From: a virus
Taxonomy: Duplodnaviria > Heunggongvirae > Uroviricota > Caudoviricetes
Length of the DNA: 46,081 nt
Reading direction: 5' to 3' (one strand)
Virus record (IMG/VR): IMGVR_UViG_2862035965_000001
In this document: one piece after another, positions 2,037 to 46,081 of the stretch
How positions within the stretch are numbered: position 1 is the stretch's first letter
How the letters are laid out: every line of letters begins with the position of its first letter
Position numbers and translations under genes: made by a program
Notes under the pieces: generated by a model
Told to the model about the DNA's origin: nothing
Database searches by the model: none
Seen by the model: only the letters and a program-made list of their open reading frames with translations

Positions 2037-2396
2037 TTAGCCACCTGTACCGAAACCGGTAACCGTATCGCCTGCACCAGACGCAAAGTTCAGCGCAAGT
2101 GTGATACCACCAACTAGGAACGCACCACCGACAATGATGAGCAAAATAGTGGTGAACCACTGAATCTGCTGACCACTCTGACCACCGAAGAGCTTGCGCA
2201 TCACGTTGACAAAGCCCCAAATCACAGCAGCACCACCAACAAGTGCCAGCAGCGAACCACCAATAATCATGAGGTAGTCAGTCGAGTTTTCAAGGAACGA
2301 CTGTAGATCCCAACTCTCACCCGTGGTGTACTGATCAGCACCATCCCAACCGGTGCCACCCTGTGCAACATAACTAACATTTCCAGGAATTGACAT
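2037..2396 (-). CDS. Small two-TM protein, TrbC/VirB2 (pilin-like) candidate
   Basis: ~119 aa from ATG 2396 with RBS. Two Gly-rich hydrophobic helices separated by a short basic/polar loop. Adjacent to the VirB6-like gene. Confidence 0.65.
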   Translation of the reverse strand: MSIPGNVSYVAQGGTGWDGADQYTTGESWDLQSFLENSTDYLMIIGGSLLALVGGAAVIWGFVNVMRKLFGGQSGQQIQWFTTILLIIVGGAFLVGGITLALNFASGAGDTVTGFGTGG

Positions 2397-2570
2397 ATTC
2401 ACCCTACTTTCCACACTGTTCCCATAAGTAATAAACAACTTTTGTTACCAACCAATAATTTAGTCTGTTTCTTAATGGGTTTCAATTCCTTAAAACATTT
2501 ATTACTTAAATAATCCTTAATATCTAACGGTCCCAGAAGAGAAGCAAAATACACCCTAATAAGACACAGG

Positions 2571-2635: not shown

Positions 2636-5600
2636 TTACTGCTTCGAGCCAGTGTCACCGCCCTGTGGCTGTGACCCCTGATCACCGTGATCAGTCTTTT
2701 TTGCCTGCTGCTGTGTCTCGTTGCCGCCCATGCTTGCCATGCGGCTGCTTACCGCAGCTGATCGCATCGCTGCGTTCATCGCCTGACTGGTCGCAGAAGG
2801 CTTCTGGCTTCGCTGTCCACGAATGCCATTCTTGGCACTGACACCGCTACGCTGTGCACCTCCGCCGCCTTGGGTTGCTCCACCACGACCACCAGTGCGT
2901 CCGCTACCACCCATCGCGTCACGAACATTAGCACCCATCTGACCAGGCTGTCCGAAGCCTCGAACAGCTTGTGATGCCAGCGAGCCTGCGACGTTCGCAC
3001 CCATAATCTGAGCTGATGACGGAGTACTTGTATTCGCTGTGTGTGCAGTATTGGCCTGGTTGTTCTGCACAAATGCCTGCGCATGTCCAGACTCTTGGTA
3101 GTGAGCCTGACCAGGTGCTACAGGTCCATGTGATGCGTTAACCACATGAGCAGCACCTGTAGAACCGGCAGCACCACCAGAAACAGCGTTACTGATAAAT
3201 CCAGCACCTGTCGCAGCGTTACCCATTGCGCTTGAGACAGTGCCTGCGCCTTGTGCTGCGGAACTTGCTGCGCCCGCTGCACCGATCACACCTGCAACAC
3301 CCGCAATGCCGGCTGCACCTTGTGCCATCTGACCAAAGCTTGCGCCAGAGGTACCTGCATCAGCATTAGTCACTGCATTCTGGATCTGACCAGGAACCTG
3401 TGACAAGTGCTGTGCCGCCTCAGTGAACTTACCGGCCACATCAACACCACCCATACCACCTGCTGCATAAGCACTGTTTACACTGTCGCCAACCTGCTGA
3501 CCCATGGACGCCAGCTGAGTATTCAGTGCCGAGCCAGAAAGATCACCAAGCTGCTTACCAGCCTTTCCAACCGGTGCTTCAGTGGCCTGAGCATTAAGCG
3601 GCTCGACGCCACCGAGAGAACTAGCTGGTGCAAGACCCTGGGATGCTGCAACCTGAAGCGCTGCATCATTCACAGCCTGATCTGAACTCGACACAGACCC
3701 ACCAGCGAGAGCACCCACTGGGGCACCACCCTGCAGCGCAGCCTCGCTCATATTCAGACCTGCACCAGAACCTGTCGCACTGTAATCAGCACCAGTGGTA
3801 CCAACCGCACCCACAGCGCCAGAGACCTCTGCGCCGTAAGTGTCTGGAATCTTTGACAGACCAGACTCAGTGACACTGCTTGCCAGGGACTGATCATCCA
3901 TGACATCAGCTGCCGTGGTAATGCCACTCGACTTCACACCAGATTTCTCCATCATGGTTCCTGACGAGCTCAGACCAGCCATCTTCGTCTCAGCTTCAGC
4001 AGCGCTCATTGGTGTGCCATCAGCATGAAGCGGGTTGCCCTGTGCATCGACGATCGCACCCTCACCGTCGAGGGTGGTTCCATCAGCACTGTACGCAGCA
4101 TTGCTAAATGATGCCTGACCAGAGCCACCAACAGCACCGTCAACGAAATCAGCACTAGCATCCGCAGAAGCGGTTGTATCGCCATCTGCTACATAGTCAC
4201 CATCGACCGTTCCTGAAGCAGAACCAGCTGTCGCATCGGCATCAACAGTAGCGTCGCCACCTGCTGCAAACGAGCCATCGCCGTCGCCGTCCATAATGCC
4301 CTCAGCTGCTTGATCAATGCCTTCCTTGGCGAGCCATCCAGCACCTGCAGCACCACCAACAATTCCAGCAGTAGCCAAACCGGTCTTAGCAAAGTCACCG
4401 AGCTTGCTTGAGCCAGATCCACCACCGTCAGCGCCGCCGCCTGAGCCAGAACCTGAATCAGATCCGCCATCATCACTACGAAGTAGTGCATGGGTGGCGC
4501 CAATACCGACACCAGTCGCAGCAGCACGACGCATCATGCCGTCACCAGAGGTAGCACCCGCAGAAGAAACCTGCGTATCGAGGAACCGGTTAACAACAGA
4601 GGTCACAGCCTCATCAACGCCAGATACCAGGGAGCTACGCACCTTCATCGCGATGATAGTGAAGACGATGACACCGAGCGAAGAGATCACCGTAATAACC
4701 AACGCTGCAACAGCCATGTTATTCGAGGCGCTCAAAGCCAAGCCAACAAGACCCATACCACCAGCAACCACCGCATCAGATTCAACATCACGAAGTGTCG
4801 ATGCCAAAGGTTGCTCAAAAAGCGCCGGCACGGTCATGAGGAACTTGGTGATCAACTGGTACAAGAAAATGGTACCGATAATCTCAATGAACATCGCCAC
4901 TGTGTACACAATGACCTTAGCGACACCGGCGATAAAGCCCATGGCTGCGAAAGGAACAGCGCCAATCAACGAAATAGAACGTCGAATCGAGTTAAACAGC
5001 ATTGCTCCGGCATAACCGATACCAATAACAATAAAGCTACCCATGAGCGAGATCGCAGAGAACCAGTACACGATAGACATTGCACCAGTGCCGATGAGAT
5101 TCACCGAGTTATGGGACGCACGTGAATAGGTGGAGGTTGATGTCGAGGCCGAGTAGACACCGGCGTCAGCAGGGTTGAAGGAGGTGTTGAGGTAGTTATA
5201 CATCGTCAGCGGGGACAAGTTGCAATAACTGCGGTAGTCACCATCGAGAGCTGCGCCTAGATCACCTGGCAAGCCACCAACTAAGCCACCAAAAAGATCA
5301 TCCCAAATTCCGCCAAGTCCACTCGCCGTAGAAACAACAGAATTAGTGCAACGTACAGTCGGATCAAGTGTCCTAAATCCGATTCCGCTATCACTGATCT
5401 GCGCACTTGCCAAGCCAGCCGAGTCATGAACCGCTAGCAGTGGATTTTTCGCCTCAGCAATGTCCTCTGCAGTCTTTTCCTTAATGGACGACTCAGTATT
5501 GTAATCGGTCACCCACGCCATCACATCTGACGCAGAAGTTGGATCATCCTTCGCCAAGTCCTCCATAGCACTTCGAATCGAAGTCTCAAAGCTACCCGAA

Positions 5601-7261
5601 GAGAGGCTCTCATTTTCAATATAACGAGTAAGCATATCCACAGTACGGCCAAAAATAGTCGTTGCTGAGTTTTGTGCAGCTGCGCCACCACCACCAACGA
5701 TATTATTCATCTCCGAGGACTTAGGGTTAGACATCTTTGACATCCAGCCTGCATCTTCACCGTTTTGGAACTCTAAATCAATCGCTGCACCAGGTTCTTT
5801 AAAAGCACTGAAATAATAATTTGAGTTCGCATTAATTTCCAATGTTGTATTCCGTACCGTCCGCAATGATTGACCTGTCGGCGCCTGCTCATCCAGATCC
5901 CATGAGATCACATTGGCATTACCTACCTTCGACGGGATCTGTAAACGTGTATTCTCTGCCCACGACTGGAAATCAACATAGGTGGACAACACGATTTTTG
6001 TCGCGTTTGATCCCGCACCGGTCGAGCTACCAGCGCTCAACAAAGAATCGAGCGCGCCGGTGTAGGTCACACCAAGAAGTGGCAACCCAACAACACCATA
6101 AATAACCCGGATCGCGACCTTTTTAATTGCCGAACCCTTATCCATGCGGCGCATCATGAGAATACCCATCATGGTCAGGCCAAGTGAGACCGGGATAACC
6201 ACAAGCCAACCAATGCTGACAGCCCAGTTATAGATCTGGGTAAAGAAGCTCGTCATGCCTTCAAATGGAGTACCTGCTGCGGTCTGTCCGCCTGCCATAC
6301 CCTCAGTGAAAGTGGCATTAGTGTTCTGTGACGCCGGCGTCACAAGAAGGCGGAAGGGGTTAATAGTCGTCAAAACCTTTAGTACAGAGTTAAAGACAAG
6401 ATCAATACCACCAGAAATCATGTACACAGCCATGATCGAGTAACCCATACCTTTACGCTGCGCCATATCAGTCGCAGAGTCTTGCGCTGCAGAACCATCG
6501 AGACCTAAGCCACTGAGTGTCGCGCCAAACAACGCATATTGGTAAGGACCCTTGTACGAATGCGTAGCCAAAGAGTCATAAGAATATGTCTTCTGGTTAT
6601 TCGCATCACCAACACCGAAGAACCAACCAGAGTCTTCATTGTGCTTCGGATCTGAATAACCCAGCACGTCACCGCCATTAGCAGCCTTATTAAGAACACC
6701 ACCCCACGCGCCAAGGCCAGCGTCCTCTACATCAGTGAACTCATTACCGTCACCTTCTTCAATACCTGCAGTTGCTGCACGGCCATTGGAGTAGAAGGAC
6801 GCCATAGCAGAGGCCATGCGGTACATCGAGTAATCAGGCGCCTTGTCAAGGTTCTCCTCTTTGCGTGTTTCTTCGTTTTTTGCATCATAGAAACACTTAA
6901 GAACATCGTCAGCAGCCAAGCATTTCTCCACTATGTGAAGCTCGCCGAGATTCTCAGTAATGCACTTGAGCAACATTTCCGTGTCACCGTCACTGGGACA
7001 GATCGCTTCAAAAGCAACCTCGCCCATAGCACCAACGACCTGCGCGATAATTGCCGACGCAAAAGCGTCAGCCTCGCGCTCTTTGTTGCCAAATGCACCA
7101 AAACTAAAGCCCATGGCGACAATAAGTGTCAGCACAGCAACTATCACCCGGCGTTGCCAGGTTTTCCGCTGATGCTGCGCACGATCCATGCGTGCAATTT
7201 CTGCATCTACATCCAGACCATTGAGCTGAATGGTTTTTTGATCCAAGACCGCTGTGGTCAC
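2636..7261 (-). CDS. Giant polytopic membrane protein, VirB6-like, with a long Gly/Ala/Ser/Gln-rich C-terminal tail
   Basis: 1541 aa. An N-terminal TM, two clusters of hydrophobic helices separated by a large loop, and a ~600 aa low-complexity tail. This architecture is typical of extended Gram-positive VirB6-like proteins. Confidence 0.7.
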   Translation of the reverse strand: MTTAVLDQKTIQLNGLDVDAEIARMDRAQHQRKTWQRRVIVAVLTLIVAMGFSFGAFGNKEREADAFASAIIAQVVGAMGEVAFEAICPSDGDTEMLLKCITENLGELHIVEKCLAADDVLKCFYDAKNEETRKEENLDKAPDYSMYRMASAMASFYSNGRAATAGIEEGDGNEFTDVEDAGLGAWGGVLNKAANGGDVLGYSDPKHNEDSGWFFGVGDANNQKTYSYDSLATHSYKGPYQYALFGATLSGLGLDGSAAQDSATDMAQRKGMGYSIMAVYMISGGIDLVFNSVLKVLTTINPFRLLVTPASQNTNATFTEGMAGGQTAAGTPFEGMTSFFTQIYNWAVSIGWLVVIPVSLGLTMMGILMMRRMDKGSAIKKVAIRVIYGVVGLPLLGVTYTGALDSLLSAGSSTGAGSNATKIVLSTYVDFQSWAENTRLQIPSKVGNANVISWDLDEQAPTGQSLRTVRNTTLEINANSNYYFSAFKEPGAAIDLEFQNGEDAGWMSKMSNPKSSEMNNIVGGGGAAAQNSATTIFGRTVDMLTRYIENESLSSGSFETSIRSAMEDLAKDDPTSASDVMAWVTDYNTESSIKEKTAEDIAEAKNPLLAVHDSAGLASAQISDSGIGFRTLDPTVRCTNSVVSTASGLGGIWDDLFGGLVGGLPGDLGAALDGDYRSYCNLSPLTMYNYLNTSFNPADAGVYSASTSTSTYSRASHNSVNLIGTGAMSIVYWFSAISLMGSFIVIGIGYAGAMLFNSIRRSISLIGAVPFAAMGFIAGVAKVIVYTVAMFIEIIGTIFLYQLITKFLMTVPALFEQPLASTLRDVESDAVVAGGMGLVGLALSASNNMAVAALVITVISSLGVIVFTIIAMKVRSSLVSGVDEAVTSVVNRFLDTQVSSAGATSGDGMMRRAAATGVGIGATHALLRSDDGGSDSGSGSGGGADGGGSGSSKLGDFAKTGLATAGIVGGAAGAGWLAKEGIDQAAEGIMDGDGDGSFAAGGDATVDADATAGSASGTVDGDYVADGDTTASADASADFVDGAVGGSGQASFSNAAYSADGTTLDGEGAIVDAQGNPLHADGTPMSAAEAETKMAGLSSSGTMMEKSGVKSSGITTAADVMDDQSLASSVTESGLSKIPDTYGAEVSGAVGAVGTTGADYSATGSGAGLNMSEAALQGGAPVGALAGGSVSSSDQAVNDAALQVAASQGLAPASSLGGVEPLNAQATEAPVGKAGKQLGDLSGSALNTQLASMGQQVGDSVNSAYAAGGMGGVDVAGKFTEAAQHLSQVPGQIQNAVTNADAGTSGASFGQMAQGAAGIAGVAGVIGAAGAASSAAQGAGTVSSAMGNAATGAGFISNAVSGGAAGSTGAAHVVNASHGPVAPGQAHYQESGHAQAFVQNNQANTAHTANTSTPSSAQIMGANVAGSLASQAVRGFGQPGQMGANVRDAMGGSGRTGGRGGATQGGGGAQRSGVSAKNGIRGQRSQKPSATSQAMNAAMRSAAVSSRMASMGGNETQQQAKKTDHGDQGSQPQGGDTGSKQ

Positions 7262-8557: not shown

Positions 8558-9397
8558 TCAAGAACTCAGAGACGATCCGGCAGGACGAATGACATCCACA
8601 GGTTCAGGCTGATCCGTCACCTCGATGGAATAAGAGGCCGTCGCATATGTGCCGTCTGGATAAATTAATTCTACAGCAAACCATAGTTGACCAGTACGAT
8701 CTTCCGATGCTGTGAAAGTAAGCTCACCGGTTTTCTCATCAATAACGACAATTGCACCCATCAACTCCGCATTGTCAATTGATCCATAACGATCACGAAC
8801 AACCTTAGATCCCTGTGGGACTCCGCCAATCGCTCCTGTACCGTCCATCACCCTCAATGGAATCTTAATAGTCTGCCCTTTACGCACCCTCGGAATCTCT
8901 TCACTCTGGATGCTGTAATAAATATCATCTGCCACAGTGATCACTGAATGTGGTGTCACTATGTCACTAGAACCATCGGGGTAGATAGCCTTGACCGTCA
9001 CTCGGTCAATGTAGGATCTGGTCATTTTTCCGGGGATAAAATAAATGACCTCTGAGCCAGCAAGAGTATGCCGAATCATACCTGTTCGTGAATCTACCCG
9101 AGAAGCAAGCAAACCATCATCAATGACATTGGTGAACGTATCACCATCAAGAACAAATTGAGTTCCTTCGGGTAATTCAGCGGAATTCTCAACGAACTGA
9201 AAAGCTGTGTTAGACAAACCCGTAGTATCCCACGGCGTACCAAGACGCGTTTCTAAGGGCTCATACTGTGGCTCATACTGAGCTGCCATAGATACATTGT
9301 CTTGTGCATTCGCAGCACCCGTGCCATTAACCGTTGCTCCGAATAGCAACGAACATGACAGTGCGACAGTGACCAACGTGCGTGAGCGTACCAACAT
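8558..9397 (-). CDS. Secreted protein with two Rib/alpha-like (YPDG) domains
   Basis: Sec signal (ANA-Q). Two YPDG motifs (KAIYPDGSSD, ELIYPDGTYA). C-terminus GSSLSS. Confidence 0.8.
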   Translation of the reverse strand: MLVRSRTLVTVALSCSLLFGATVNGTGAANAQDNVSMAAQYEPQYEPLETRLGTPWDTTGLSNTAFQFVENSAELPEGTQFVLDGDTFTNVIDDGLLASRVDSRTGMIRHTLAGSEVIYFIPGKMTRSYIDRVTVKAIYPDGSSDIVTPHSVITVADDIYYSIQSEEIPRVRKGQTIKIPLRVMDGTGAIGGVPQGSKVVRDRYGSIDNAELMGAIVVIDEKTGELTFTASEDRTGQLWFAVELIYPDGTYATASYSIEVTDQPEPVDVIRPAGSSLSS

Positions 9398-9591: not shown

Positions 9592-12021
9592 CTACCGCTT
9601 CGCCAGGCGCTTCTTTTCTACCTGTGCAAGTGCGTCGTCAAGATTCTTCGGCCCTGTTTTCGCAGCTAGTTCTTTCGCCTCCACATCATCAAGCTCCTTC
9701 ATCTTGCGCGCAGCCTTCTCCTCAAAGCGCTCTTCGCGGTGCTCGGCCTTGGCCTGAATAGCCACCACATCCAAATCCGCTGTACCCACCATGGTCGTGC
9801 CACCGCCGTAGTGCTTATCTCGCTTGGATCGTCGCCTACCGCGCTGCGCTTCAATCTTGCGGCGCTGCTCCATATAAGGATTCACACCCAACGCAAGGTT
9901 GGTTTCAAACACCACATTGGTCGCACCTCGGCGCAAATAGCTCGCACCAGAATTCTGCGTTGTTACCAACCGCGCCAAGTCCATCGGAATCTGACTGTTA
10001 ATCAGCGACTGATACATATCCACCGAGTCAACATTCATCGGGCCCAAAATGGTGTACGCAGCACGTTGGAACTGGTTGAAACCGACAGTGCCAAGCATGG
10101 CGTCCATCGAACTGTAGAGATAGGCCACTCGCCCACCACGCTCAGCCATGTAACCAAACTGATTCGCCAAATAATCCTGCACATCAACATCGACAATGCC
10201 ATCAGCACCGTGGATAATAACCACATCACCTTGACCGAGCGTCTCCACGGCAAAACCAATGACGTTAACTAGCTGTGCCATCGCAACACCTGCGCCACGT
10301 CGCAGCAAACCAGAAAAATCATAGATCACGCGGCGTGCAGAGTTAACAGAGTCAATGCCATCTGCAGTGTGCTGATTAAACAAGTCACCGTGAGTATCGA
10401 GCAAATCTTTATAGGTCAATCGCAGCACAGAAATAGCTCGGAACATATCGGGGTCTTTCACACCCTCGAACTTCTGCCTCTCATACTCTTGATCAAGATA
10501 GGACACAAAGACAGAGAGCAGCGGGATCTGATCATGAGGAACCCCAACAAGTCGCAATTTGTCTCGGTTTTCACCAGCGTTAAGAGCCCACATACTCATG
10601 TCCACATAAAAATCTGTGATGATCTCTTTGAGCTTTCCACGCAATAGCGCCAGCTCAGAAGTCTTATCGCCCAGTGCTTGCTCGGTCATGAACACGATCT
10701 TGTCCATGTGTGTTGAATACAGCGACAGCTCATCTTCTTGCTTACCAAAAAGCTCAAACATGTTGAGATCACCGCTGGTCATGTCCACATGCGCGGTCAT
10801 AGATTCTAACTTCGGCCCCATTTCATCAAGCTTGGCGCCATTGAGCACCAGATGCACCACGCGACGGTTGTTGAGCAACGCTGCCTGGGAGATCTTCGAC
10901 CCCCACATATCAACCACACGTGGTCGATTCAGCAATGGCGAGGTGTTAATAGAATTATCTGCGCATACGACATGTCCAGACCAACGATCCACATCAAAAA
11001 GCACAGCGGAGTTGTTGACATCGCCACGCATGACACCGACGTATTCGCCGGCAACATCGTTAAGACCATTGGTGACCAAAGAATAAGAACCTGCAAATTC
11101 GGTCGAAGTAAAGTGGAACCCTTTACCTCGCTTTTTACTATTCTTGGTAAAAATCTGTGACAGCTCCTGGCGCTGCTCACCGTGGTGTGCAGCAATATCC
11201 ATTCGCGATAAGTGCTCGATGAAACTGCGTCGAATCTTCTCTACAGTAGAATCCAAAATCTCAAGGCTTGGTCCGCGCAACAGCAGGCGGTTGTGCACAG
11301 TCAAATATGATGCACCGTCATCAAGTTCAGCAATCACTTCATCAAGATCAAGTCCACGTTTGACTGTCTTGCGACGATTCGACTTGGTGGAAGAATCTGC
11401 CAAGTCCGATTCCTCTGTCTTGGAAAGTCGGTCAGTGTTTTTTAGGTTGTCATCAATCCATGACTGCTTCATACGCTCCACCTGCTCAAAGAGCACAGCG
11501 GAAACACCCTCAGGAAGGTTACGCGGAATACGGTTCACTCCCCAGAAGGCACCGAATTCATCCTTGGCATCCTCATTGTGGAAAAACGACAAAATAGTGC
11601 CGATTTCATCATCCACCTCAAAATAATCTGAGTGGAAAACATAATGTTCCCGTGGCTTAATCACCATGAGGTGGCCATGATTTTCCATGGTGCCTAACGC
11701 TGCCTGCGCGTCCTTTTTCTGCTGGCGAGTCATCGTCTCGTCAGCAAGATCATCGCCAGACTCGTCCACATCATCCGTGGCAGCGCTGGTCGCACGATCG
11801 TCAAGGTCACCAAAACCAAATGATCCACTCAGGGTGCGCGCAGTGCGCGCAGGTACAGGTGTGGTTTCCTCGGGCGCGCGACCAATGATGCGAGCTCCCA
11901 GTGAGGGTGCTGGGAGTGGTGCTCCTGTGTCAGGTGTTGCATGAAGTGCATCAATCTCCGTAGCGGAGGTGTCTGCAGGTGTTTTCGACTGCTTTTTCTT
12001 GAGTCTGTTTAGAAGTTTCAT
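9592..12021 (-). CDS. VirB4/TrsE-like conjugation protein with degenerate Walker motifs
   Basis: 809 aa. Segments resembling VirB4 pre-ATPase motifs (LLLRGPSLEILD; TSTEFAGSYSLVTNGLNDVAGEYVG...AVLFD). Lies directly downstream of a PrgI-like gene. No GxxxxGK[S/T] present. Confidence 0.65.
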   Translation of the reverse strand: MKLLNRLKKKQSKTPADTSATEIDALHATPDTGAPLPAPSLGARIIGRAPEETTPVPARTARTLSGSFGFGDLDDRATSAATDDVDESGDDLADETMTRQQKKDAQAALGTMENHGHLMVIKPREHYVFHSDYFEVDDEIGTILSFFHNEDAKDEFGAFWGVNRIPRNLPEGVSAVLFEQVERMKQSWIDDNLKNTDRLSKTEESDLADSSTKSNRRKTVKRGLDLDEVIAELDDGASYLTVHNRLLLRGPSLEILDSTVEKIRRSFIEHLSRMDIAAHHGEQRQELSQIFTKNSKKRGKGFHFTSTEFAGSYSLVTNGLNDVAGEYVGVMRGDVNNSAVLFDVDRWSGHVVCADNSINTSPLLNRPRVVDMWGSKISQAALLNNRRVVHLVLNGAKLDEMGPKLESMTAHVDMTSGDLNMFELFGKQEDELSLYSTHMDKIVFMTEQALGDKTSELALLRGKLKEIITDFYVDMSMWALNAGENRDKLRLVGVPHDQIPLLSVFVSYLDQEYERQKFEGVKDPDMFRAISVLRLTYKDLLDTHGDLFNQHTADGIDSVNSARRVIYDFSGLLRRGAGVAMAQLVNVIGFAVETLGQGDVVIIHGADGIVDVDVQDYLANQFGYMAERGGRVAYLYSSMDAMLGTVGFNQFQRAAYTILGPMNVDSVDMYQSLINSQIPMDLARLVTTQNSGASYLRRGATNVVFETNLALGVNPYMEQRRKIEAQRGRRRSKRDKHYGGGTTMVGTADLDVVAIQAKAEHREERFEEKAARKMKELDDVEAKELAAKTGPKNLDDALAQVEKKRLAKR

Positions 12022-12128
12022 CTATCCCCAATTCACTTTAAGAGAAATATATTAAACAAACTTTAACACAAAGAAAGTCTCTATTAAATGTCATTTCATT
12101 AGTGCAACCGCCACCCAGAAGACACGAA

Positions 12129-12163
12129 AAAGCAGGTTGTCGGATCTTCCGGCAACCTGCTTT
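12129..12163. terminator. Intrinsic terminator
   Basis: AAAGCAGGTTG...CAACCTGCTTT. Confidence 0.75.
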
Positions 12164-12177
12164 AAAAAACGTCGCGA

Positions 12178-13047
12178 CTACTTCTTCTTATGTCCGTAAA
12201 TACTGCGCAACAGGTCATTAACCTCAAACCCGTTGAGTTGACGACACTGCTTGTACATCGCACTTGAGTTTTCTACCTCAGAGAGCAAAATCTCTTGTGC
12301 AGTATGCAGTGCGGCGTCATTCGGTGAATGCAGCGCCAAATACTGGTGAATTGAGCTGAATTTTCCACCTACGTCATAACGCAAAATATCAAGTGATTCC
12401 TCCATAAGCTTGGTGAGCTCAGGGTGTCGATACACCAGGTTCTGGTTTTTACGTTCGACGTTGGCGACCTGACTAAATACTGCTTGGGATTCCTTTGTCG
12501 TGATGAAATTCCACTGCGTGTCTGTTTCTACTTTTTGCCAAAAAGAATCTACGCGGTCAACAATCTGACTCCGATCGCCAGAGAACAACAACGCTGAGGC
12601 TGTACCCACAACCGAGTAGAAATAACCCACACTGCCATCCAAGTAGCGCACATAACCATCTTCATCGACACTTTTAATACCGACAAGCTGCATGAATGGG
12701 TATGGCGCAGTATCACGTCGTGTGGAAATTCTACGGTGTTGTTTCTGCAGATAGCCGAACAGAGCCGGCAGCTGCATAAACTTCATTTCCTTGGTTTTAG
12801 TCCACTGTCCGAAATAAGCAGCGAAACCAATGACCCACAACACAATGATGATTTTCAGCCACACCGGTGAGTGCTTGACCGGTGGTGTCATAATCACAGC
12901 TGCAGTGGAAATAAACACCACAAACCAAAACAGCAAAACTTTAACAGGGATAATGCCCAAGCTAAACGACTTGGTGGTAATCGGGATCTCATAATCCAGC
13001 ACACTGCGCGCCAGGGATGGTGGAACTTTGTATTCTGCTTTTGCCAT
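12178..13047 (-). CDS. PrgI/VirB3-like membrane domain fused to a TrsD-like cytoplasmic domain
   Basis: N-terminal YKVP motif and two TM helices, then GIKSVDEDGYVRYLDG...LLFSGDRSQIVD, resembling TrsD-type proteins. Immediately upstream of the VirB4-like gene. Confidence 0.6.
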   Translation of the reverse strand: MAKAEYKVPPSLARSVLDYEIPITTKSFSLGIIPVKVLLFWFVVFISTAAVIMTPPVKHSPVWLKIIIVLWVIGFAAYFGQWTKTKEMKFMQLPALFGYLQKQHRRISTRRDTAPYPFMQLVGIKSVDEDGYVRYLDGSVGYFYSVVGTASALLFSGDRSQIVDRVDSFWQKVETDTQWNFITTKESQAVFSQVANVERKNQNLVYRHPELTKLMEESLDILRYDVGGKFSSIHQYLALHSPNDAALHTAQEILLSEVENSSAMYKQCRQLNGFEVNDLLRSIYGHKKK

Positions 13048-13103: not shown

Positions 13104-15383
13104 TTAGTCTCGCGGTGCCAGCTGGAAGCCGACAAAGGAGTTGCCGTTGTACTCGCCGCGCTGCAGCGATCCCCGAGCTGTGTACGGCTTCTTTGCCTTC
13201 GACATAGCATCGAAAGCAATCTCGCGACCTTCAAGCAGATCGGCGATCTCCTTGTCGGTGAACTTGTGACCACCCCATACGCGCTTGAAGCGAATCTTTT
13301 TACCCTCAACCTTCCACACACCCACCGCGTACACAGCTGGGTCTGCAGAGGCAATGCGATCAACCTGACCCTTAAACCCAAAGAAATTGATGGTCTTGCC
13401 GTCTTTGTTGAAGCTTTGATGCGCTAGCTTGCCGGTGACTGTCGTGATCTGCCCACCAATCATCGCATCGGTAATGGTGAGCTCCTCACCATTGAGCAAC
13501 GCCTCACATTCAGCATCGCTAAATTCATGCCCGCAGTAGACCTTCTTAAAGCTCACCTGCTCGCCGTTCCAGATGCCGGAGTGCTTCGCAGTGGGGGTAA
13601 AAGTAGTAGTCATGAGTTTCTTTCCTAGTTCTTGGGGGATGTTTTTTGCGTTGCGGGTCATGGTGGCAATATCCTCTTCGACCCACTGTTTCACTGGCTC
13701 TAGTGCCTGCTCTGCGGTCTTTTCACCAGCAGCAACCGCAGCCATATCCGCATAAACGCGCTCGGTCAATTTGAGGTCGCCAATATGGGTGCCAGGAAGC
13801 AGCAGATAATTCAGTTGCCCTGCGTCAGTCATAGTGACTTTGCCGCGAGTTTCTTTGAGCAATGCTGACTTGCCGGCTGTGACCTCGGCATAAGTGCTCG
13901 TTCGTGTCGCACCGGTACCGACATCATGCTTATCGAGCTGTTTCATCAACCACGTCATCGACGGATGCGGTGGTCGCTGCGGAAAACCCTCAAACACCTC
14001 TGGCTCAGCACGGTTACCAATCCCCTGCTGTGCTGCATCACTGCCGGCAGCGGCATCATCAGTCTCGGCGTCTACGTCGAAAATACCCTTCCAACCCAAG
14101 GACTTCGGTACGTTCGCGGTACCGAGAAACGCTGGGTAATCCACGACGCGGCCTTTTTGGTGCTCATAGAGGTAATCCTCTGCCAGCATCGTGAGGTAGC
14201 TCTTAGCCAGCACTTCATAAATGCGCTGTCCGAGCACACCATAGGTGGTTTTCACCGCTGCAATACTGGCCGGCACATTAAATCCCGGACGGTTAGCACC
14301 GTGGGCACCCTTAGGCTTGACGTGGGTCGATCGTGGCTGCCTATGCGTAAGGTCAGCCGGATTCACACCGACCAGGCCGGCAATCTTATCTACCAGTGGC
14401 GCAAGTTCCTTAAACTGCTCAGGGGTAATCGTCTTATCCTCGGTACGCGGATAAGACACCACCTGTGCTTCATACATCTGCTGATAGGTCTTCAGCACGT
14501 TCTTTGCGCTAAAACCTTCTTTGGACAGCAATGCCGACAGGCTTGCCAAGTCAAGTAGACGTGGCGGCGCCGTCTTTTTCATGCTCTTCTCATAGCATTC
14601 GACAGCACTTGCTTTGTACTGCTGCGGTACCTCGTCGCGAGTCTTATAACGTGGCTCCTCGGGGTTGACGTAACTTACCCCGTGATCATCAGTGAAGCGG
14701 TTTTGATAAAAAGGAGTCTTTTTATAATCGTTGTACGCATCTAAGCCCTGCCCCACAATCGCAACCATGGCAGATTTCAGGCGCCCATTGCGCAAGACTG
14801 CACGCCGACCAGTGGCCTCCAACACTTTGGTGGCACCGCGAGTCCACTGCATCGACAGCAGATCAAAGCGTGATCGGAATTCCGCCTTAAGATAATTGGG
14901 CTCGTCATGCATGGAGGTCACATCGCGACGGTTGATAAACGCCTGCTGAATCGAGGCCGGCGCCTCATCAACAAATTCCATACGCTGAATCTTCTTGGTG
15001 TCTAACCCCAGCTCAGCGATAATCTCCCACGCCAACAGATCGCCTTCACCCGTGGGATCAATATCTGATCCGATCACAATGGTGTTGCAACTGCTCAAGG
15101 TTTTCTTAATGCGCGCAATCGTGTTGGCTGCGCCGTGCTTTTGCTCCCGTGACCACAAAAACTGCCTCTCGTCCCACGGCAGCTTAGCGAGATCCCAGTA
15201 TCCACCGATTTCATCGGCATAGCTTGGCGGCACCATCTCTTCTGGTTCCACGAACTCATAAAGATGCCCACTGGCTGCAGCAATGACGTATTTCTCGCCG
15301 TTATAAGTACCAGAGGGTCCGCCGAGGGCTTTCGCAAAGTTTTTTGCAGCCGAAGCTTTCTCCGTCAAAATTCCAATTGTCAA
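13104..15383 (-). CDS. Type IA DNA topoisomerase (mobile-element TopB/topoisomerase III-like)
   Basis: Toprim motifs (TEKAS, GHL, DIDPTGEG), GRLKS, catalytic SYPRTE and GTGATR. Two C-terminal repeats (FKKVYCGHEFSD..., FKRVWGGHKFTD...). TTG start with AGAAAGG RBS. Confidence 0.93.
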   Translation of the reverse strand: MTIGILTEKASAAKNFAKALGGPSGTYNGEKYVIAAASGHLYEFVEPEEMVPPSYADEIGGYWDLAKLPWDERQFLWSREQKHGAANTIARIKKTLSSCNTIVIGSDIDPTGEGDLLAWEIIAELGLDTKKIQRMEFVDEAPASIQQAFINRRDVTSMHDEPNYLKAEFRSRFDLLSMQWTRGATKVLEATGRRAVLRNGRLKSAMVAIVGQGLDAYNDYKKTPFYQNRFTDDHGVSYVNPEEPRYKTRDEVPQQYKASAVECYEKSMKKTAPPRLLDLASLSALLSKEGFSAKNVLKTYQQMYEAQVVSYPRTEDKTITPEQFKELAPLVDKIAGLVGVNPADLTHRQPRSTHVKPKGAHGANRPGFNVPASIAAVKTTYGVLGQRIYEVLAKSYLTMLAEDYLYEHQKGRVVDYPAFLGTANVPKSLGWKGIFDVDAETDDAAAGSDAAQQGIGNRAEPEVFEGFPQRPPHPSMTWLMKQLDKHDVGTGATRTSTYAEVTAGKSALLKETRGKVTMTDAGQLNYLLLPGTHIGDLKLTERVYADMAAVAAGEKTAEQALEPVKQWVEEDIATMTRNAKNIPQELGKKLMTTTFTPTAKHSGIWNGEQVSFKKVYCGHEFSDAECEALLNGEELTITDAMIGGQITTVTGKLAHQSFNKDGKTINFFGFKGQVDRIASADPAVYAVGVWKVEGKKIRFKRVWGGHKFTDKEIADLLEGREIAFDAMSKAKKPYTARGSLQRGEYNGNSFVGFQLAPRD

Positions 15384-16764: not shown

Positions 16765-18852
16765 CTAACGCGCGCCTCCACCAGTGCTGGGTAGATCGAA
16801 GTTACCGACCCGGTAATCCTGCTTGGAGACACACAGCACCACAGCATTAAGAAAACGCTTCGGGTCAGGAACACGCACCTGCCACGCCTCATCTGTCCGG
16901 GTGTTCCACAAAATACCGTCCTTCATCCCAGACATGACCAAATACATTGCCAGCTGCAAAAACATCGGATGGGTCAGCTCAGAAACGAATTTCAGCTCAT
17001 AGAGCACATCCTTGTGCACCGCGTCTGCGACACCCGCAAAAGACATTGGCGTGCGCACTGCTTTACTCTGTACTGCCTCGCCGTCAAGGATCAGTGGAAT
17101 CTGATTGCGTGAATCAGCATTCAGCCTCGTACCCAGTCGTGACACCAATGCCTTCTCTGCAGCAACCGGAATAGAGCTGCGCACCTGATCGACATACCGC
17201 ATCTGCTCTGTAGACGCTGCTGTGACAATAAGGCAGTTACGCCATACGCTGTTGTTTTTCTTCACCAGGCGTTTGAGATTTTTCGCAAACGGTCTCGGGT
17301 ACGCCGATAGTGCTGTATGGACGTTGTAGTCCTTGAAGAACACTGCCTCCTGAAAGTTTCCAACTGTGGGTGACAGATCAATAAGCCCGTCACTGCGATT
17401 GACCTCAATGGCTGCACCTTTGCCGTTGTCGAGACGCTTCACATCAAGCAGGTCAAAACATGCTTCGACATTCTCTGCGTACTTAAAATCAAAGGCTTCG
17501 GTCACAGAGATCGGGCGCTCATATTCACTAGGCGCCAACTCAGGTAGTTCTTTAAACACTGAGACAGGAATGAAACCCATGGTGCGCTCAATCTGTTGTT
17601 TCACCTCATCCACATCACCCTCGCTTTCTTCTGCCGACGCATGGACATCTACCTCAGGTGCAACCTCGGTATTGTTGTCCACCACACCCACAGCACGCCC
17701 TGCAGCCCAGTCCGCACCAGCCTCATACGCTGCTTGGAGAGAATCACTGCGTACAAAAACAACCTTGTTTTTGCCGCGTGATGCTGCCACCAAGAACACA
17801 TTGCGCATGACTACGGGGTCAACATTGGGGTAACCAAGACGCATGTCCCAGAATTCTTCGTCATAGTCAAAGACCACGCAGGTATCGCGCTCTAGACCTT
17901 TACTGGAATCAAAGGTGGTAAACACCGCAGCATCATCTGGGTGTGCAATCTGGGAATCACCATCGCGAATAGAGGCGAACACAGTTTTCTTGTTGAACTT
18001 TGCCGGTGACTTCCTCTCCACGACATTAAGCGCATCCGACATCTGTCCATTGCGACTACCTAAGCACAGCAGGTTGCTCGGTTCAGTACTTTGAATCAGC
18101 ACCACCGCTTCAGCAAAAGACTTGTATTCAATCTGCTGTGCGGTATTGACACCCACAATCGGTTTATTCCACGCATCAGACAATCCTGCTGCCATAGCCT
18201 CACCAATGCGAAACGACTGCGTAAACGGCGCATAGACTGGATCTTCACACAACTGTGCTGCAAATTCTTGTGGATCTAACGTGGTGTCAGATCGGACTTT
18301 CTGTTCCAAATCACCCACCATGACAATCTGCATGAGCGGGTTGACAGACTTAATGTTGCGCAGCAATTCTGCATAGTCCTCATTGATGTCCTGATACTCA
18401 TCAATAACCATCAGGTCGTAGCTGGGGAACGTGCCAGAAATGTGCTTGAAGTTCTTGTTAAACTCCCGAATCGACTCGCTAATACCGCACTTAATGCCGG
18501 CCTTGAGTAGATGAGGATAGACAATGCCGTGATAGTTCTGCACCTTGGCACCACGAACACGCTGCTGTGCATCAATTTTCAACAACTTCGAATAGGTCAG
18601 ATACAGCACCTCATGGTCTGCACCCATAATCGAGCACAGTCGTTGAATAGCAGTAGTTTTGCCCGAGCCCACGGTGGCATCAACAATGACGTCTTTGCCA
18701 GCAAGCACGTGATCAATCATGGCTTGCTGTTCGGCACTGAGTTGGACTTCGCCTGCACCGGTGCTCAACTGTGGCGGAGGTGCCACCTGCGTGCTGGTGT
18801 TGTACGCAGCGAGCATTGCTGCTGGATTATTTAGCGACATCATATTTGCCAT
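16765..18852 (-). CDS. SF1 (UvrD-like) helicase fused to a C-terminal PD-(D/E)xK nuclease domain
   Basis: Walker A ATVGSGKTT, Walker B VIDEYQD, VGDLEQ, QSFR, SKGLE and VAASRGK. C-terminal GVADAV...YELKF...LQLAMY is a RecB/Cas4-like nuclease signature. Confidence 0.88.
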   Translation of the reverse strand: MANMMSLNNPAAMLAAYNTSTQVAPPPQLSTGAGEVQLSAEQQAMIDHVLAGKDVIVDATVGSGKTTAIQRLCSIMGADHEVLYLTYSKLLKIDAQQRVRGAKVQNYHGIVYPHLLKAGIKCGISESIREFNKNFKHISGTFPSYDLMVIDEYQDINEDYAELLRNIKSVNPLMQIVMVGDLEQKVRSDTTLDPQEFAAQLCEDPVYAPFTQSFRIGEAMAAGLSDAWNKPIVGVNTAQQIEYKSFAEAVVLIQSTEPSNLLCLGSRNGQMSDALNVVERKSPAKFNKKTVFASIRDGDSQIAHPDDAAVFTTFDSSKGLERDTCVVFDYDEEFWDMRLGYPNVDPVVMRNVFLVAASRGKNKVVFVRSDSLQAAYEAGADWAAGRAVGVVDNNTEVAPEVDVHASAEESEGDVDEVKQQIERTMGFIPVSVFKELPELAPSEYERPISVTEAFDFKYAENVEACFDLLDVKRLDNGKGAAIEVNRSDGLIDLSPTVGNFQEAVFFKDYNVHTALSAYPRPFAKNLKRLVKKNNSVWRNCLIVTAASTEQMRYVDQVRSSIPVAAEKALVSRLGTRLNADSRNQIPLILDGEAVQSKAVRTPMSFAGVADAVHKDVLYELKFVSELTHPMFLQLAMYLVMSGMKDGILWNTRTDEAWQVRVPDPKRFLNAVVLCVSKQDYRVGNFDLPSTGGGAR

Positions 18853-20086: not shown

Positions 20087-21910
20087 TTACCGGTTAAAGA
20101 TCCACCCGAATTTCTTCGTACTCCTCATACGCTCTGGGCAAAAGTTGGTAACGATCTCAGCATTTTTCTCACAAAATGCGTTCACTAAACCTAAATCTTC
20201 CGTATCACTTGCCCCATTTCTTCCGGGTGCACCTTTGAACCATTCTTGATTCACTGGAAGATAAATCTGGCGCAATGTGATTGGCGCGGCATACTCTTCG
20301 CAGTCAAGTACACAGCTTACAAAGTAAACAACAGTTTCCCATCCCTCGGCGCCCGGCTCAGTTGGGGTGAAATAAGTTGCTGTCGATGCATAGTAAGCAG
20401 CCTCCACCATATCGAGTCGAGTAATTCCGTGCTTATACCGAAGCTTATCTGCGCCAAAACCTACATCGGGTTTGTCATTTGGGTCCCAATATCCGCGACG
20501 AATTAGATAATCAATGTTGGTACCTGGGTTCTTTGGGTAAACAATATCTCCAGTAGGACTACCGCTGGCGAGTGTTTGCAGTTGACGATGAGGGTTTTGA
20601 TTTACTGGGGCAAACTTCTCAGATTGACTATTCGAGAGGCTTCCGCTTCCCTCTCCACCCATGTACGCAAGACCGTCATCCGTTGCCCACAGAGATCCGT
20701 TTTCAAAGCGTTGAAGTAACGTCTCCTCAAATGGGTCTAAAGATACCCAGGGTAAGCCTAAGCCCTCGATACCACCGAGTTGCTTCCACAGGGCAACAGC
20801 TTCACCATTTAGCTCACGCGCCCCAATTCCCGCACCCCATAAAATCATGGAGTTTTCTCCAAAATCAACATGGTGTGCAACGCCCGGGACATAAGCTTCT
20901 TCATCTGCTTCAGGGAAGCCTAAACGACCCGTTTCCCGACCAAGTGCATCCCACACCCGCTGTGTAGCCAAATACATGAACCGAGTCTGACGATCATTTC
21001 GCCAGGAGATCGTTCCATTGGAGAAATTATTGTAAAAATACTCAGTACCGCTAGGTAGCTCATTAGTGATCGGGATGCCAATGGCATGATTCGAGCCGCC
21101 AAGTTCTTCGTAGCGCTGTTTAATATCGCCCCACACAGCACCGCCAGTCAATGGGTTGTAGTAGTTGTCACCACCTTGAAAAGTCTGTCGCTGAGTAAGG
21201 GGATAGTTTGTATCCATCGGACCAGAGGTTGGGTACCCCAATGGCCCTGATTCCCAGTTCAAGGTCCCCCACTGTCGCAAACCGTCCAAGGTCACTGCAT
21301 AAGCGCCTGTGTCTGGGTGCCAATAGATGGCTCCACCAAAAAATTCACTTCTTTTACCAACACCGTCAGGATTGGTCAACTCGTTTGACTTCGGTGGTCC
21401 AAGCCATGACAACTGACCTCCAACCTGACGATAAGCGTCAAGAATCCGGCCACACACTGAAAAGCCCGTCGGCCACATAACTTCACACCCGGTGGTTGCC
21501 ATCAGTCGTGCACCCTCGTTAAGTCGTGCTTCTGCGACTTCTACCTGGTCAGCTTTGTCCTTGCTTACCCCCTCCGGTAACTCGATGACATCTGAACGCA
21601 TGTCCCCTGCAACGATGTCCCGCTTAGGTGGCGGGAGTTCCTCGACATTGTCTTCACTATCGTTGACTTGCTCGTGATACTCAACGACTACTTCTGGATG
21701 TGCTGTTTCGTAATCCTCAAGTTGTTCCTCAACTGTTGGAGCATTCCTATTGGGGACATAATCAACACCGTCATCAGCAAACTGCTCATCAGTGATTTCT
21801 TCTACAAGCTCAAATTGATCGTCCACCTGTGCTTGAGCCACCGGAGATGCAACCCCGATGGCCAGCAACATGACAGCGGAAACCCCCACCAATCTTCGTG
21901 TCAACCGCAT
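20087..21910 (-). CDS. psp1: Secreted LGFP-repeat protein (Psp1-like) with a distinct C-terminal domain
   Basis: Sec signal (AQA-Q). LGFP repeats LGPP, LGYP, IGIP, LGFP and LGLP. The N-terminus recalls C. glutamicum Psp1; the symbol is from recall. Confidence 0.85.
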   Translation of the reverse strand: MRLTRRLVGVSAVMLLAIGVASPVAQAQVDDQFELVEEITDEQFADDGVDYVPNRNAPTVEEQLEDYETAHPEVVVEYHEQVNDSEDNVEELPPPKRDIVAGDMRSDVIELPEGVSKDKADQVEVAEARLNEGARLMATTGCEVMWPTGFSVCGRILDAYRQVGGQLSWLGPPKSNELTNPDGVGKRSEFFGGAIYWHPDTGAYAVTLDGLRQWGTLNWESGPLGYPTSGPMDTNYPLTQRQTFQGGDNYYNPLTGGAVWGDIKQRYEELGGSNHAIGIPITNELPSGTEYFYNNFSNGTISWRNDRQTRFMYLATQRVWDALGRETGRLGFPEADEEAYVPGVAHHVDFGENSMILWGAGIGARELNGEAVALWKQLGGIEGLGLPWVSLDPFEETLLQRFENGSLWATDDGLAYMGGEGSGSLSNSQSEKFAPVNQNPHRQLQTLASGSPTGDIVYPKNPGTNIDYLIRRGYWDPNDKPDVGFGADKLRYKHGITRLDMVEAAYYASTATYFTPTEPGAEGWETVVYFVSCVLDCEEYAAPITLRQIYLPVNQEWFKGAPGRNGASDTEDLGLVNAFCEKNAEIVTNFCPERMRSTKKFGWIFNR

Positions 21911-25179: not shown

Positions 25180-25287
25180 GTCTACCCCTATTCTCTGAAA
25201 ATCCATTAATGTTAATGATTAAGTTAGTCTATTTCATAGTTGATTAACTTATCCACTACCCAGACCTCTACGAGAAAGTTCCCCAGA

Positions 25288-32064: not shown

Positions 32065-32114
32065 TAACGCAACCCGGCAACCCAGCATCAACCTTCTTAA
32101 GAAATACCCTCATC

Positions 32115-32708: not shown

Positions 32709-32772
32709 GTTTTAAGGCGCGGTATAACCGCACCAGCATTCAATCCATTCCTAGAAAAGGACTTAACTTATC

Positions 32773-33171
32773 ATGACCACCTTCGCTCTCATTGCCAGCC
32801 CCAACAATGTTGATCCCACAGCCGCGTCCCCACTAGCCATTGAGATACATACCGACGAGGACAGCGGTTATCCGTTAGACCTCATTCTCACAGACCATTT
32901 GGTTCCTGCTGTGGTCTACGGAGATATGGTTATCTACACCAAAACCCTGTTGGCACAGACCCCACCGGATACTGTGCCCACTGCCGAAGTTTTTTTCGAC
33001 AAACTAAAAAAGCTTATTGCTCAAGGTCGCACCCGTGACCGCGTATACAGCGACACCTACAGCCAGCTTGTTATTGCCGGCCACAATCGCACTGTGTTGA
33101 CTGACAGCTCAGAGTTCTATGACGAGTTTTACCAGTTCATCGAAGCCGCACCTGGGGTGATCTTGAAATGA
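32773..33171 (+). CDS. Hypothetical protein
   Basis: 132 aa with GAAAAGGA RBS. Confidence 0.75.
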   Translation: MTTFALIASPNNVDPTAASPLAIEIHTDEDSGYPLDLILTDHLVPAVVYGDMVIYTKTLLAQTPPDTVPTAEVFFDKLKKLIAQGRTRDRVYSDTYSQLVIAGHNRTVLTDSSEFYDEFYQFIEAAPGVILK

Positions 33172-34550: not shown

Positions 34551-34562
34551 GAAGCACCCCTA

Positions 34563-44986: not shown

Positions 44987-46081
44987 TCAAGCACTTTTAC
45001 GTGCCACACGCTTTGCCAATTCCCCATCGCGCTCACCTGAGTGCTGATAACGCAGTGCTGCACTCGGCGTTGAGTGCCCAAGCCGTGCCATCACCTCCTT
45101 GAGGGTTGCGCCAACCTGTGCATATTTCGTACCGGAGTAGTGACGCATCGAGTGGACGGTCGCTGTACTGTGAATGCTTTTTCGCGCTCGATCCCAGTTG
45201 TGCTTAAAGGTGTGATACGGCATCGGATCTTCCGGGTCCCCAATAGCACTCCACAACCGCTGACCCACGTCAACGCTGTCCACATATGCTGCAATAGTCA
45301 CTGCATCCTCACCGTAGATATACAAGCTACGCACGCCTGCGGCACTCTTAGGTGGACCTTCTACTCGACCGTGATACTTAGTATGAGTAATACTCCGGGA
45401 GATTCTTATTCGAACACAATCTACTTCTCCCTCGCGATTAAAGTAGACATCCACATCAGTGGTGCGCAACGCTACAATTTCGCCATATCGCAGCCCACCA
45501 GCAATGGCAACTACAGCGATCACAAAGTACTTCACCGGTAATGCGGCAATAATCGCATCAAGCTCTGCACTCGTCGGCACATCAACATCTTTGCCTGTGC
45601 TGGCACTACCCCCGCCACGTACTTTGCACGGATTCGTCGGGATGATGCCATCTTCTACAGCAGTATTCATCACAGACTTCATCAACGTATAGTTTCGTGC
45701 CATCGCGGTGAGTTTGCCGTCCTGGATCGTATCGCTATACCACTCACGAACATCAGCGACAGTAATTTCAAAGAGCCCATAATCAGCCCAATAACTTAGT
45801 CGATCTGATGTTATATAACGTAAGTATTCATCCTTCACCCCTTGAGTAAGCTTCTTACCTCGGGCATTTGTCCGGGTTTCTATCCACCTCGATGCATAAC
45901 TGAAGAAGGACTCCATCATGCGTTCTTCAGCCTCAAGCTGTGCCCGCTTAAACTTTTCCCGCATCTCAAAATCCATCCACGTGCCATTGATAATGGCCGT
46001 GCGCTCAGAGGCCAAGAACTCATCAGCCTCACCCTTGGTACCGAAAGTATGCGGAGCCGAATATCGCCTACCCTCGTGCAT
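44987..46081 (-). CDS. int: Tyrosine recombinase/integrase (N-terminus probably beyond the window edge)
   Basis: Catalytic set GLRYGEI (R), PKS (K), HSMRH (H-x-x-R), LGH and LRY (Y). Confidence 0.95.
   Translation of the reverse strand: MHEGRRYSAPHTFGTKGEADEFLASERTAIINGTWMDFEMREKFKRAQLEAEERMMESFFSYASRWIETRTNARGKKLTQGVKDEYLRYITSDRLSYWADYGLFEITVADVREWYSDTIQDGKLTAMARNYTLMKSVMNTAVEDGIIPTNPCKVRGGGSASTGKDVDVPTSAELDAIIAALPVKYFVIAVVAIAGGLRYGEIVALRTTDVDVYFNREGEVDCVRIRISRSITHTKYHGRVEGPPKSAAGVRSLYIYGEDAVTIAAYVDSVDVGQRLWSAIGDPEDPMPYHTFKHNWDRARKSIHSTATVHSMRHYSGTKYAQVGATLKEVMARLGHSTPSAALRYQHSGERDGELAKRVARKSA

Follow-up and report, generated by a model that had tools for sequence, protein, structure and literature searches.

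A family of VirB4 homologs without Walker motifs, probably pseudo-ATPase hubs of a monoderm conjugation system

VirB4, the hub ATPase at the inner membrane, is treated as the one universal component of type IV secretion systems (T4SSs) and as a marker for conjugative elements; its ATPase activity is normally essential for T4SS function, and its Walker motifs are considered essential. Here we describe a VirB4 homolog that lacks both motifs. Its gene lies on the minus strand at 9592-12021 of a 46,081-nucleotide stretch (IMG/VR record IMGVR_UViG_2862035965_000001, here called the window), which occupies 2.05-2.10 Mb of a 3.54-Mb single-contig genome, and it belongs to a monoderm conjugation cluster inside a chromosomal island. 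The product is a true VirB4 homolog by fold and by context, and the Walker-less family to which it belongs is under purifying selection. This VirB4 variant is probably a pseudo-ATPase hub in a T4SS subtype that is recognised neither by the family models we tried nor by MOB-suite.

An earlier note on this DNA, made from the sequence alone, had described the product as a VirB4-like protein encoded by an intact, full-length open reading frame (ORF). Our ORF check of the window found the frame uninterrupted across 809 codons, and the relationship to VirB4 was confirmed by the fold match of an AlphaFold2 (AF2) model and by the surrounding conjugation genes. The protein begins with a disordered region of ~120 residues, followed by a VirB4-like N-terminal domain (NTD, aa 122-317), a RecA-like C-terminal domain (CTD, aa 318-714) and a charged helical tail that forms the C-terminus. 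Landmark strings within it are GEYVG (aa 325-329), AVLFD (aa 339-343), G-HVVCA-DNSINTSP (aa 349-362, G349 being the first) and VVIIHGAD (aa 600-607). Searches against Pfam, including PF03135, PF12846 and PF19044, returned no match even at E ≤ 10, and the N-terminal part of the NCBIfam mycoplasma VirB4 model, VirB4_plasma, aligned with aa 127-343 at E 1.3e-5 and 23 bits against a cut-off of 590. The protein reaches the cut-off of no curated VirB4 model in either collection.

An exhaustive HMMER search over 1.84 billion cluster representatives recovered 248 relatives at E ≤ 1e-3 (clusters at 50% identity) and 97 at E ≤ 1e-30. An alignment of 94 full-length members served as the basis of both the AF2 model and the column counts given below. 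With this alignment, AF2 produced a model with a mean predicted local distance difference test (pLDDT) score of 86.6 and a predicted template-modelling score of 0.74, whereas prediction from the single sequence gave a pLDDT of 35 and an unusable model. Top-ranked among Protein Data Bank (PDB) structures in Foldseek was TrwK/VirB4 of R388 (8rtd, 7o43; E 1e-15 over ~660 columns), and the CTD of Thermoanaerobacter pseudethanolicus VirB4 (4ag5) also matched with a template-modelling score of 0.76. VIA-align placed 349 of 374 residues on the 4ag5 CTD (Z 31.6, root-mean-square deviation 3.1 Å) and 495 on full-length TrwK (Z 23.1, model 122-713 onto chain 220-783), compared with Z 22.5 for DndH-C, 20.6 for HerA, 17.1 for TrwB and 13.1 for EssC; the 4ag5 score thus stands ~9 Z units above DndH, HerA and TrwB. 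Because the Foldseek ranking and the VIA-align score gap agree, we regard both the NTD and the RecA-like CTD as VirB4-like and the match as specific. Superposition of an AlphaFold model on VirB4 structures, a check proposed in the earlier note, therefore identifies a VirB4 fold in particular; a fold that is not VirB4/RecA-like was considered and is not the case. Profile comparisons point to the same relatives. The family hidden Markov model ranked 4ag5 first in the PDB (E 0.013), and hhalign, run in local mode as global mode yielded no alignment, aligned the family over 555 columns (probability 91%, E 1.2e-6) with canonical actinobacterial VirB4, represented by four homologs from genomes (L108-L111) that all carry GxLGSGKS.

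A regular-expression search found no [AG]xxxxGK[STN] anywhere in the 809 residues. In the AF2 model, strand 350-354 (HVVCA) leads into loop 355-368 and then helix 369-383, which is the beta1/P-loop/alpha1 position, and in the hhalign alignment the GSGKS of the canonical actinobacterial homologs falls within this same loop. The stretch between A354 and W373 (aa 355-372) varies from 6 to 39 residues across the 94 members, with a median of 20, and contains no conserved residue; the loop replacing the P-loop is well ordered in our protein and variable across the family. K376, at the start of the helix after the loop, is kept in 53 of the 94 members and is L, Q, R, Y or A in 41.

At the Walker B position, strand 600-604 closes with H604 and is followed by G605 in the model. 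The HMMER profile aligns the family string 'vviIHGad' with the 4ag5 Walker B 'VLVVDEAW', and the canonical homologs have DE or EE at the place of H604-G605. The columns around this site are D599 in 92/94 members, H604 in 81/94 (Y in nine more) and G605 in 91/94, with an acidic residue, D or E, at position 607 in 84/94; two arginines, R631 (77/94) and R698 (90/94), are also conserved. The structural mapping of the Walker sites is credible because three independent mappings, by the AF2 model, by HMMER to 4ag5 and by hhalign, agree. Judged from these alignments, the nucleotide-binding site is remodelled in the lineage of this protein, with a variable loop for the P-loop and a conserved H-G followed by an acid for Walker B.

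None of the 94 aligned full-length representatives and none of 83 genomic copies has both Walker motifs, and GxxxxGK[ST] is absent from all 83 family genes from genomes and plasmids. Among 150 representatives, no member except P0143 has a Walker A at the P-loop position, and five further ones contain chance matches away from it. The distant member P0143 carries GNDTTGKT exactly at the P-loop column; we rejected this as a sign of activity, since P0143 has H-G at Walker B and no other member is like it. As the same state is seen in all 94 members and 83 copies, motif loss is a property of the family and not strain-specific decay. The earlier note had reported the lack of GxxxxGK[S/T], an altered Walker A place and a Walker B place reading VVIIHGAD; these readings stand, with H604-G605 at the D-E position. 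It had also asked whether the loss is family-wide or whether close homologs retain the motifs: the loss extends to the whole family, and the only exception, a lone GxxxxGKT, is that of the distant P0143.

Among the 83 genes, the ratio of nonsynonymous to synonymous substitution rates (dN/dS) has a median of 0.23 (1016 pairs at 70-97% identity), and the closest pairs shown range from 0.08 to 0.23. The locus recurs at ~98% identity on contigs of independent metagenome studies, among them compost and chicken gut; of the 28 substitutions listed within the ORF, 22 affect third codon positions, and the sole indel is an in-frame 9-nt deletion within the disordered N-terminus. The low dN/dS and the third-position bias answer the earlier question about purifying selection in the affirmative.

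Together with genes that continue into the left flank, the cluster has the layout of a monoderm conjugative T4SS (VirB1, B3, B4, B6, D4 and relaxase), with roles assigned partly from position and topology. The flank encodes a phage-tail-lysozyme-type hydrolase, a MobL relaxase, a ClpB-like double AAA+ protein and a VirD4/TraG-type coupling protein. A second, canonical VirB4, which the earlier note had suggested looking for, was found neither in the element nor in the genome nor on three family-carrying plasmids. In the 3.5-Mb genome, PF03135 and PF19044 had no match and PF12846 nothing above its cut-off; on the plasmids pGKT2 and SAP020A all three models were without a match over cut-off, and on pELF2 there was no match to PF19044 or PF03135. 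On the pELF-like plasmid NZ_LT598665.1, PF12846 gave sub-cut-off matches only.

The element does encode other ATPases with intact motifs, so that the part of the earlier proposal of another ATPase that concerns its presence holds. The coupling protein matches PF02534, PF12696 and PF10412 and has TRAGKGQT as Walker A and FMLDELG as Walker B. The ClpB-like protein has two AAA+ modules, and both Walker A and both Walker B motifs are invariant in 17 orthologs. Orthologs of the ClpB-like protein (49-60% identity) occur in 19 of 20 family-positive genomes of different genera, and the same 19 genomes have coupling-protein orthologs (53-67% identity), the two genes lying 3-5 kb apart wherever both coordinates are given on one contig. 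A further five of five family-positive genomes and plasmids contain a ClpB-like ortholog (30% identical in pELF2), bringing the total to 24 of 25; the 'AAA family ATPase' neighbours in Staphylococcus and Enterococcus are likewise homologs of this protein. At E ≤ 1e-60 no such ortholog was found in 400 sampled genomes of the phylum, where the best match (1e-53) was at the level of a housekeeping Clp paralog. The 24/25 co-occurrence, the invariant motifs and the 19/20 coupling orthologs thus indicate that the coupling-protein/ClpB-like pair travels with the element family. The elements combine two gene sets, one made up of this pair and the relaxase, the other of the degenerate VirB4 and the channel genes.

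Two observations concern the genes of this pair. In the present copy the coupling-protein gene is split in two, at L021:364-3720(-) and L006:14824-16347(-) (G000:C1 ~2028190-2036217), whereas orthologs in relatives are mostly contiguous and 1300-1400 aa long. The N-terminal piece (1118 aa) ends in a Hint-like tail of ~79 aa (AQPLTAKIATPDGW...); in the C-terminal piece (507 aa), the first ~91 aa end ...DHLYITDDMIPTHN|T and are followed by the TraG-D_C domain, which resumes exactly where the N-terminal piece stopped (profile 3-59 versus 56-125). The 3.1-kb gap between the pieces contains a 259-aa membrane ORF and, on the opposite strand, a gene for a 606-aa protein that has four treble-clef zinc fingers of the DUF4379 type. 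The arrangement looks like a split intein or a 'fractured gene'. In-frame insertions of ~0.8-1.1 kb occur in the ClpB-like gene of several relatives from Streptomyces, Actinomyces and Clostridia (G302:C1:1761555-1764392, G303:C1:6835029-6837887, G558, G566, G568 and G569). They directly follow residue 335/336, where the second AAA+ module has its Walker A, lie within open frames of 960-1439 aa and are probably inteins in the P-loop.

The distribution of the Walker-less VirB4 family is that of a sporadic, horizontally moving element. Searches of 150 further species of the host genus and of the 400 sampled phylum genomes did not find it. A pattern scan of species-representative genomes recovered 113 relatives, mostly from Nocardiopsis, Streptomyces, Arthrobacter, Kribbella, Microbacterium and Actinomyces, with some Clostridia metagenome-assembled genomes. 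By tblastn the family is present on 196 plasmids, at 50-54% identity in Rhodococcus, Gordonia and Streptomyces and at ~25% in Staphylococcus, Enterococcus faecium (102 records), Lactiplantibacillus and others; MOB-suite typed 111 of these plasmids as non-mobilizable, 74 as mobilizable and 11 as conjugative. The homologs of pGKT2 (Gordonia) and SAP020A (Staphylococcus) are 54% and 27% identical to our protein. According to the statement in PMC5640721 that cites Jung et al. 2011, pGKT2 was moved by mating to Gordonia, Rhodococcus and Nocardia.

The E. faecium matches that we inspected are pELF-type linear plasmids, and one of these, pELF2, has been reported to conjugate (PMC13492992). The pELF2 member of the family has 656 aa (41029-42999; hhalign probability 100%, E 9e-84), and the 288-aa protein encoded directly upstream of it is a homolog of the 289-aa partner that stands upstream of our gene; the two pELF2 genes together span 40148-42999. 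At 31075-42999 pELF2 (L112, NZ_AP022343.1) encodes the ClpB-like ATPase, proteins of 1213 and 718 aa, an LPXTG protein, the 288-aa partner and the 656-aa VirB4 homolog. All of these genes lie outside the tra operon of the 2026 pELF2 transfer study, which took in a 12-gene operon at 71-80 kb and called the machinery minimal; its 'traC(B4)' is a 420-aa FtsK-family protein named by analogy (PMC13492992). Full-text searches of an incomplete literature collection found no description of a VirB4 without Walker motifs, and a 2025 review states that Gram-positive VirB4 homologs keep all signature motifs, including Walker A and B (PMC12857230).

We consider it reasonably likely that the 809-aa protein is a catalytically dead VirB4 scaffold. 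Most likely it no longer hydrolyses ATP and would act as a structural hub, docking onto the upstream two-transmembrane VirB3-like partner and organising further membrane proteins of a monoderm mating channel, the giant VirB6-like polytopic protein and the bitopic ones. We infer that DNA transfer would be powered by those ATPases of the element that have intact motifs, namely the VirD4/TraG-type coupling protein and the ClpB-like double AAA+ ATPase; the latter might possibly be an unfoldase for the MobL relaxase, and the SF1 (superfamily 1) helicase-like ATPase of the window may contribute further. A part for the ClpB-like protein in unfolding the relaxase, or in compensating in some other way for a dead VirB4, is a hypothesis. 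A wider and more tentative proposal, which we hold with rather less than even confidence, is that a widespread class of monoderm conjugation systems, carried by integrative and conjugative elements and by plasmids of Actinomycetota and Bacillota, among them pGKT2 and the linear vancomycin-resistance plasmids of the pELF type in E. faecium, is built around a catalytically dead VirB4, has been missed by the family models tried and by MOB-suite, and is powered by the coupling protein with a dedicated ClpB-like AAA+ ATPase.

Several observations weigh against a dead scaffold in a conjugation channel. The absence of Walker motifs predicts, and does not prove, lost nucleotide binding, and the former active site has not simply decayed: D599, H604, G605, the acid at 607 and both arginines (R631, R698) are strongly conserved and could form a new ligand site or a non-canonical catalytic site. 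On this basis the protein might be an active motor without a classical P-loop, with a nucleotide or another phosphate ligand held by D599/H604/G605/[DE]607/R631/R698. The pattern GD-hhhh-HG-x-[DE] and two arginines, reported conserved in >85% of the 94 members, are more than scaffolding would seem to need, and a remnant 'GxK' survives in about half of the members where the helix following the loop begins. Yet that loop of 6-39 residues has no conserved residue, K376 is replaced in 41/94 members, and to our knowledge no RecA/ASCE-fold (additional strand, conserved glutamate) NTPase works without a P-loop; an active motor of this kind thus seems quite improbable to us. As for the energy source, the ClpB-like gene adjoins the coupling-protein gene and not that of the VirB4 homolog, so that its product need not compensate for VirB4.

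The role in conjugation also has to be weighed. The three pELF2 genes shown to be essential for transfer lie elsewhere than the module of the VirB4 homolog, the study having covered the other operon, so that a part of the family in conjugation is putative. The apparatus could be an exapted T4SS derivative that serves surface adhesion or mating-pair stabilisation, protein export or entry exclusion, with DNA transferred by FtsK/VirD4-type motors alone. Such a reading would fit the fact that traC, traD and traG at 72-78 kb are the sole genes shown essential in a pELF2 system called minimal, the family member lying at 41-43 kb, as well as the surface proteins embedded in the module (Rib/YPDG here, LPXTG in pELF2). 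It is, however, harder to reconcile with the actinobacterial module, whose neighbours (lysozyme, MobL relaxase and VirD4-type coupling protein) are arranged as is usual in monoderm T4SS clusters, and no other channel candidates were found on pGKT2, on SAP020A or in the present element; we judge exaptation unlikely. Finally, the coupling-protein gene in two pieces means that this particular element may not be transfer-proficient. This interruption, and the absence of the family from every other species among 150 of the genus, might suggest that the gene is what is left of a formerly active VirB4, decaying within an integrated element that is defective in this strain. We give this explanation almost no credence: the same motif state in every member across two phyla refutes it at the family level, the ORFs are intact, dN/dS is 0.08-0.23 in the closest pairs, metagenome differences are mostly at third positions, and a new conserved motif occupies the former Walker B site.

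The coordinates of the features are collected in Table 1. The 289-aa partner adjoins the VirB4 homolog in 81 of 83 loci and has no Pfam match even at E ≤ 10. Two weak leads connect it with known components: hhalign to the N-terminus of canonical VirB4 (E 0.016 and 0.0016, low probability) and Atlas TraC-like/PrgI clusters at 0.86-0.89. In profile comparisons the partner's cytosolic domain weakly resembles both the opening ~120 residues of canonical VirB4 and the NTD of the 809-aa protein; the latter protein lacks ~200 residues of the canonical VirB4 N-terminus. Possibly the VirB3/VirB4 gene boundary has shifted, so that a VirB3-like hairpin is now joined to the first subdomain of VirB4. Both role names, VirB3-like and VirB6-like, are those suggested by topology and position alone.

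Table 1. Features of the conjugation cluster (window coordinates unless a contig is named)
Feature	Position	Strand	Evidence and occurrence
Degenerate VirB4 homolog P0001, 809 aa	9592..12021	-	AF2, fold matches, weak NCBIfam VirB4_plasma match, Pfam null
Loop aa 355-368 (DNSINTSPLLNRPR) at the Walker A P-loop place, between strand HVVCA and helix VVDMWGSKISQAALL	10918..10959	-	
G-D-VVII-H-G-A-D motif aa 598-607, replacing Walker B hhhhDE	10201..10227	-	
289-aa partner, two-transmembrane hairpin (VirB3/PrgI-like topology) and ~190-aa cytosolic domain	12178..13047	-	directly upstream of VirB4 homolog
1541-aa polytopic membrane protein, ~10 transmembrane segments (hydropathy), VirB6-like channel candidate	2636..7261	-	79/83 loci; no Pfam match
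Type IA DNA topoisomerase, TopB-like	13104..15383	-	Pfam Topoisom_bac and Toprim, NCBIfam topB; within 10 kb in 59/83 loci
496-aa bitopic protein, one transmembrane segment	397..1887	-	23/83 loci, 10-kb flank; conserved in related clusters
133-aa two-transmembrane protein	2037..2438	-	18/83 loci
Secreted Rib/YPDG-domain surface protein, adhesin candidate, inside cluster	8558..9397	-	Pfam RibLong, NCBIfam YPDG_rpt
695-aa SF1-helicase-like ATPase	16765..18852	-	Walker A ATVGSGKT; pGKT2 ortholog 49% identical
Tyrosine recombinase, phage-integrase family	44987..46081	-	right end of window
MobL relaxase	L005:11183-13927	-	PF18555, E 1.5e-57

Within the 46-kb window, the 695-aa SF1-helicase-like protein is the only one with a canonical Walker A. 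The tyrosine recombinase at the window end suggests that the cluster is part of an integrated element; a search for the element ends found no direct repeats of at least 16 nt shared by the integrase side and the left flank. The island also carries an LGFP-repeat protein at 20087-21910(-), a staphylococcal-nuclease homolog at 25240-25926(+), SSB at 33924-34550(+), a trypsin-like protease at 38709-39662(+) and a Fic/DOC protein at 39725-40444(+), and many other ORFs have no family match. The LGFP repeats hint at a Corynebacterium-like actinobacterium as the host. Adjoining the element in the left flank, L006:10670-14743(+) holds a restriction-modification cluster with a putative C5 DNA methyltransferase (read from sequence), an NgoFVII-type endonuclease and a Z1/DEAD-domain protein. 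Copies of the locus 9592-13047 at 95-99% identity are present on contigs from compost, chicken gut and one unlabelled run, and shared words place it also in air, drinking-water and sludge metagenomes; with holders from about six studies, the element or its host appears to circulate widely. RNA-library runs contained just 7% of the words, with one contig over the partner gene alone at 92% identity, and thus gave no evidence for expression.

If the protein is indeed a pseudo-ATPase hub, VirB4 ATPase activity would not be universally required for type IV secretion. A family that keeps the fold and the T4SS context without both motifs would offer a natural test of the structural as opposed to the enzymatic functions of VirB4. 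It may also explain why most of the 196 plasmids were typed as non-mobilizable or only mobilizable, though pGKT2 and pELF2 are reported to be conjugative. Furthermore, our results point to candidate transfer genes on the pELF-type plasmids through which vancomycin resistance spreads, and to the ClpB-like AAA+ ATPase as a new candidate for a T4SS-associated motor.

The closest comparison is with the VirB4 proteins of monoderm systems, T. pseudethanolicus VirB4 (4ag5), PrgJ of pCF10, TraE of pIP501 and ConE of ICEBs1, covered in Pfam by AAA_10 and CagE_TrbE_VirB. With these our protein shares the two-domain fold (Z 31.6 on the CTD), the landmarks GxYVG, the NP[FL] motif, the YDFS/FDV strand and the R-rich motif after Walker B, and the company of an upstream small two-transmembrane protein, a polytopic VirB6-like protein, a cell-wall hydrolase, a coupling protein and a relaxase. 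It differs from them in lacking Walker A, in having H-G for D-E, in an N-terminus ~200 residues shorter and in falling below all model cut-offs. TrwK/VirB4 of R388 (7o43, 8rtd) is an active ATPase with canonical motifs that matches over its full length in structure (Z 23.1) at a sequence identity of just 10-11%; its system is diderm, with VirB11 and an outer-membrane complex, whereas the cluster described here is monoderm. In the pELF tra system (traC, traD, traG; PMC13492992) the published 'VirB4 analog' TraC is a different protein from the family member, and pELF2 has its own member and partner, with a ClpB-like ATPase 8 kb away. A precedent for the retention of a RecA-like domain after its catalytic motifs have weakened is found within the same FtsK/HerA clade in type VII secretion, where D2 and D3 of EssC/EccC (EssC Z 13.1) are degenerate RecA-like domains kept as regulatory or structural modules. 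These degenerate domains share a polypeptide with an active one; in the present family degeneracy extends to the entire protein, and the candidate motors are encoded separately.

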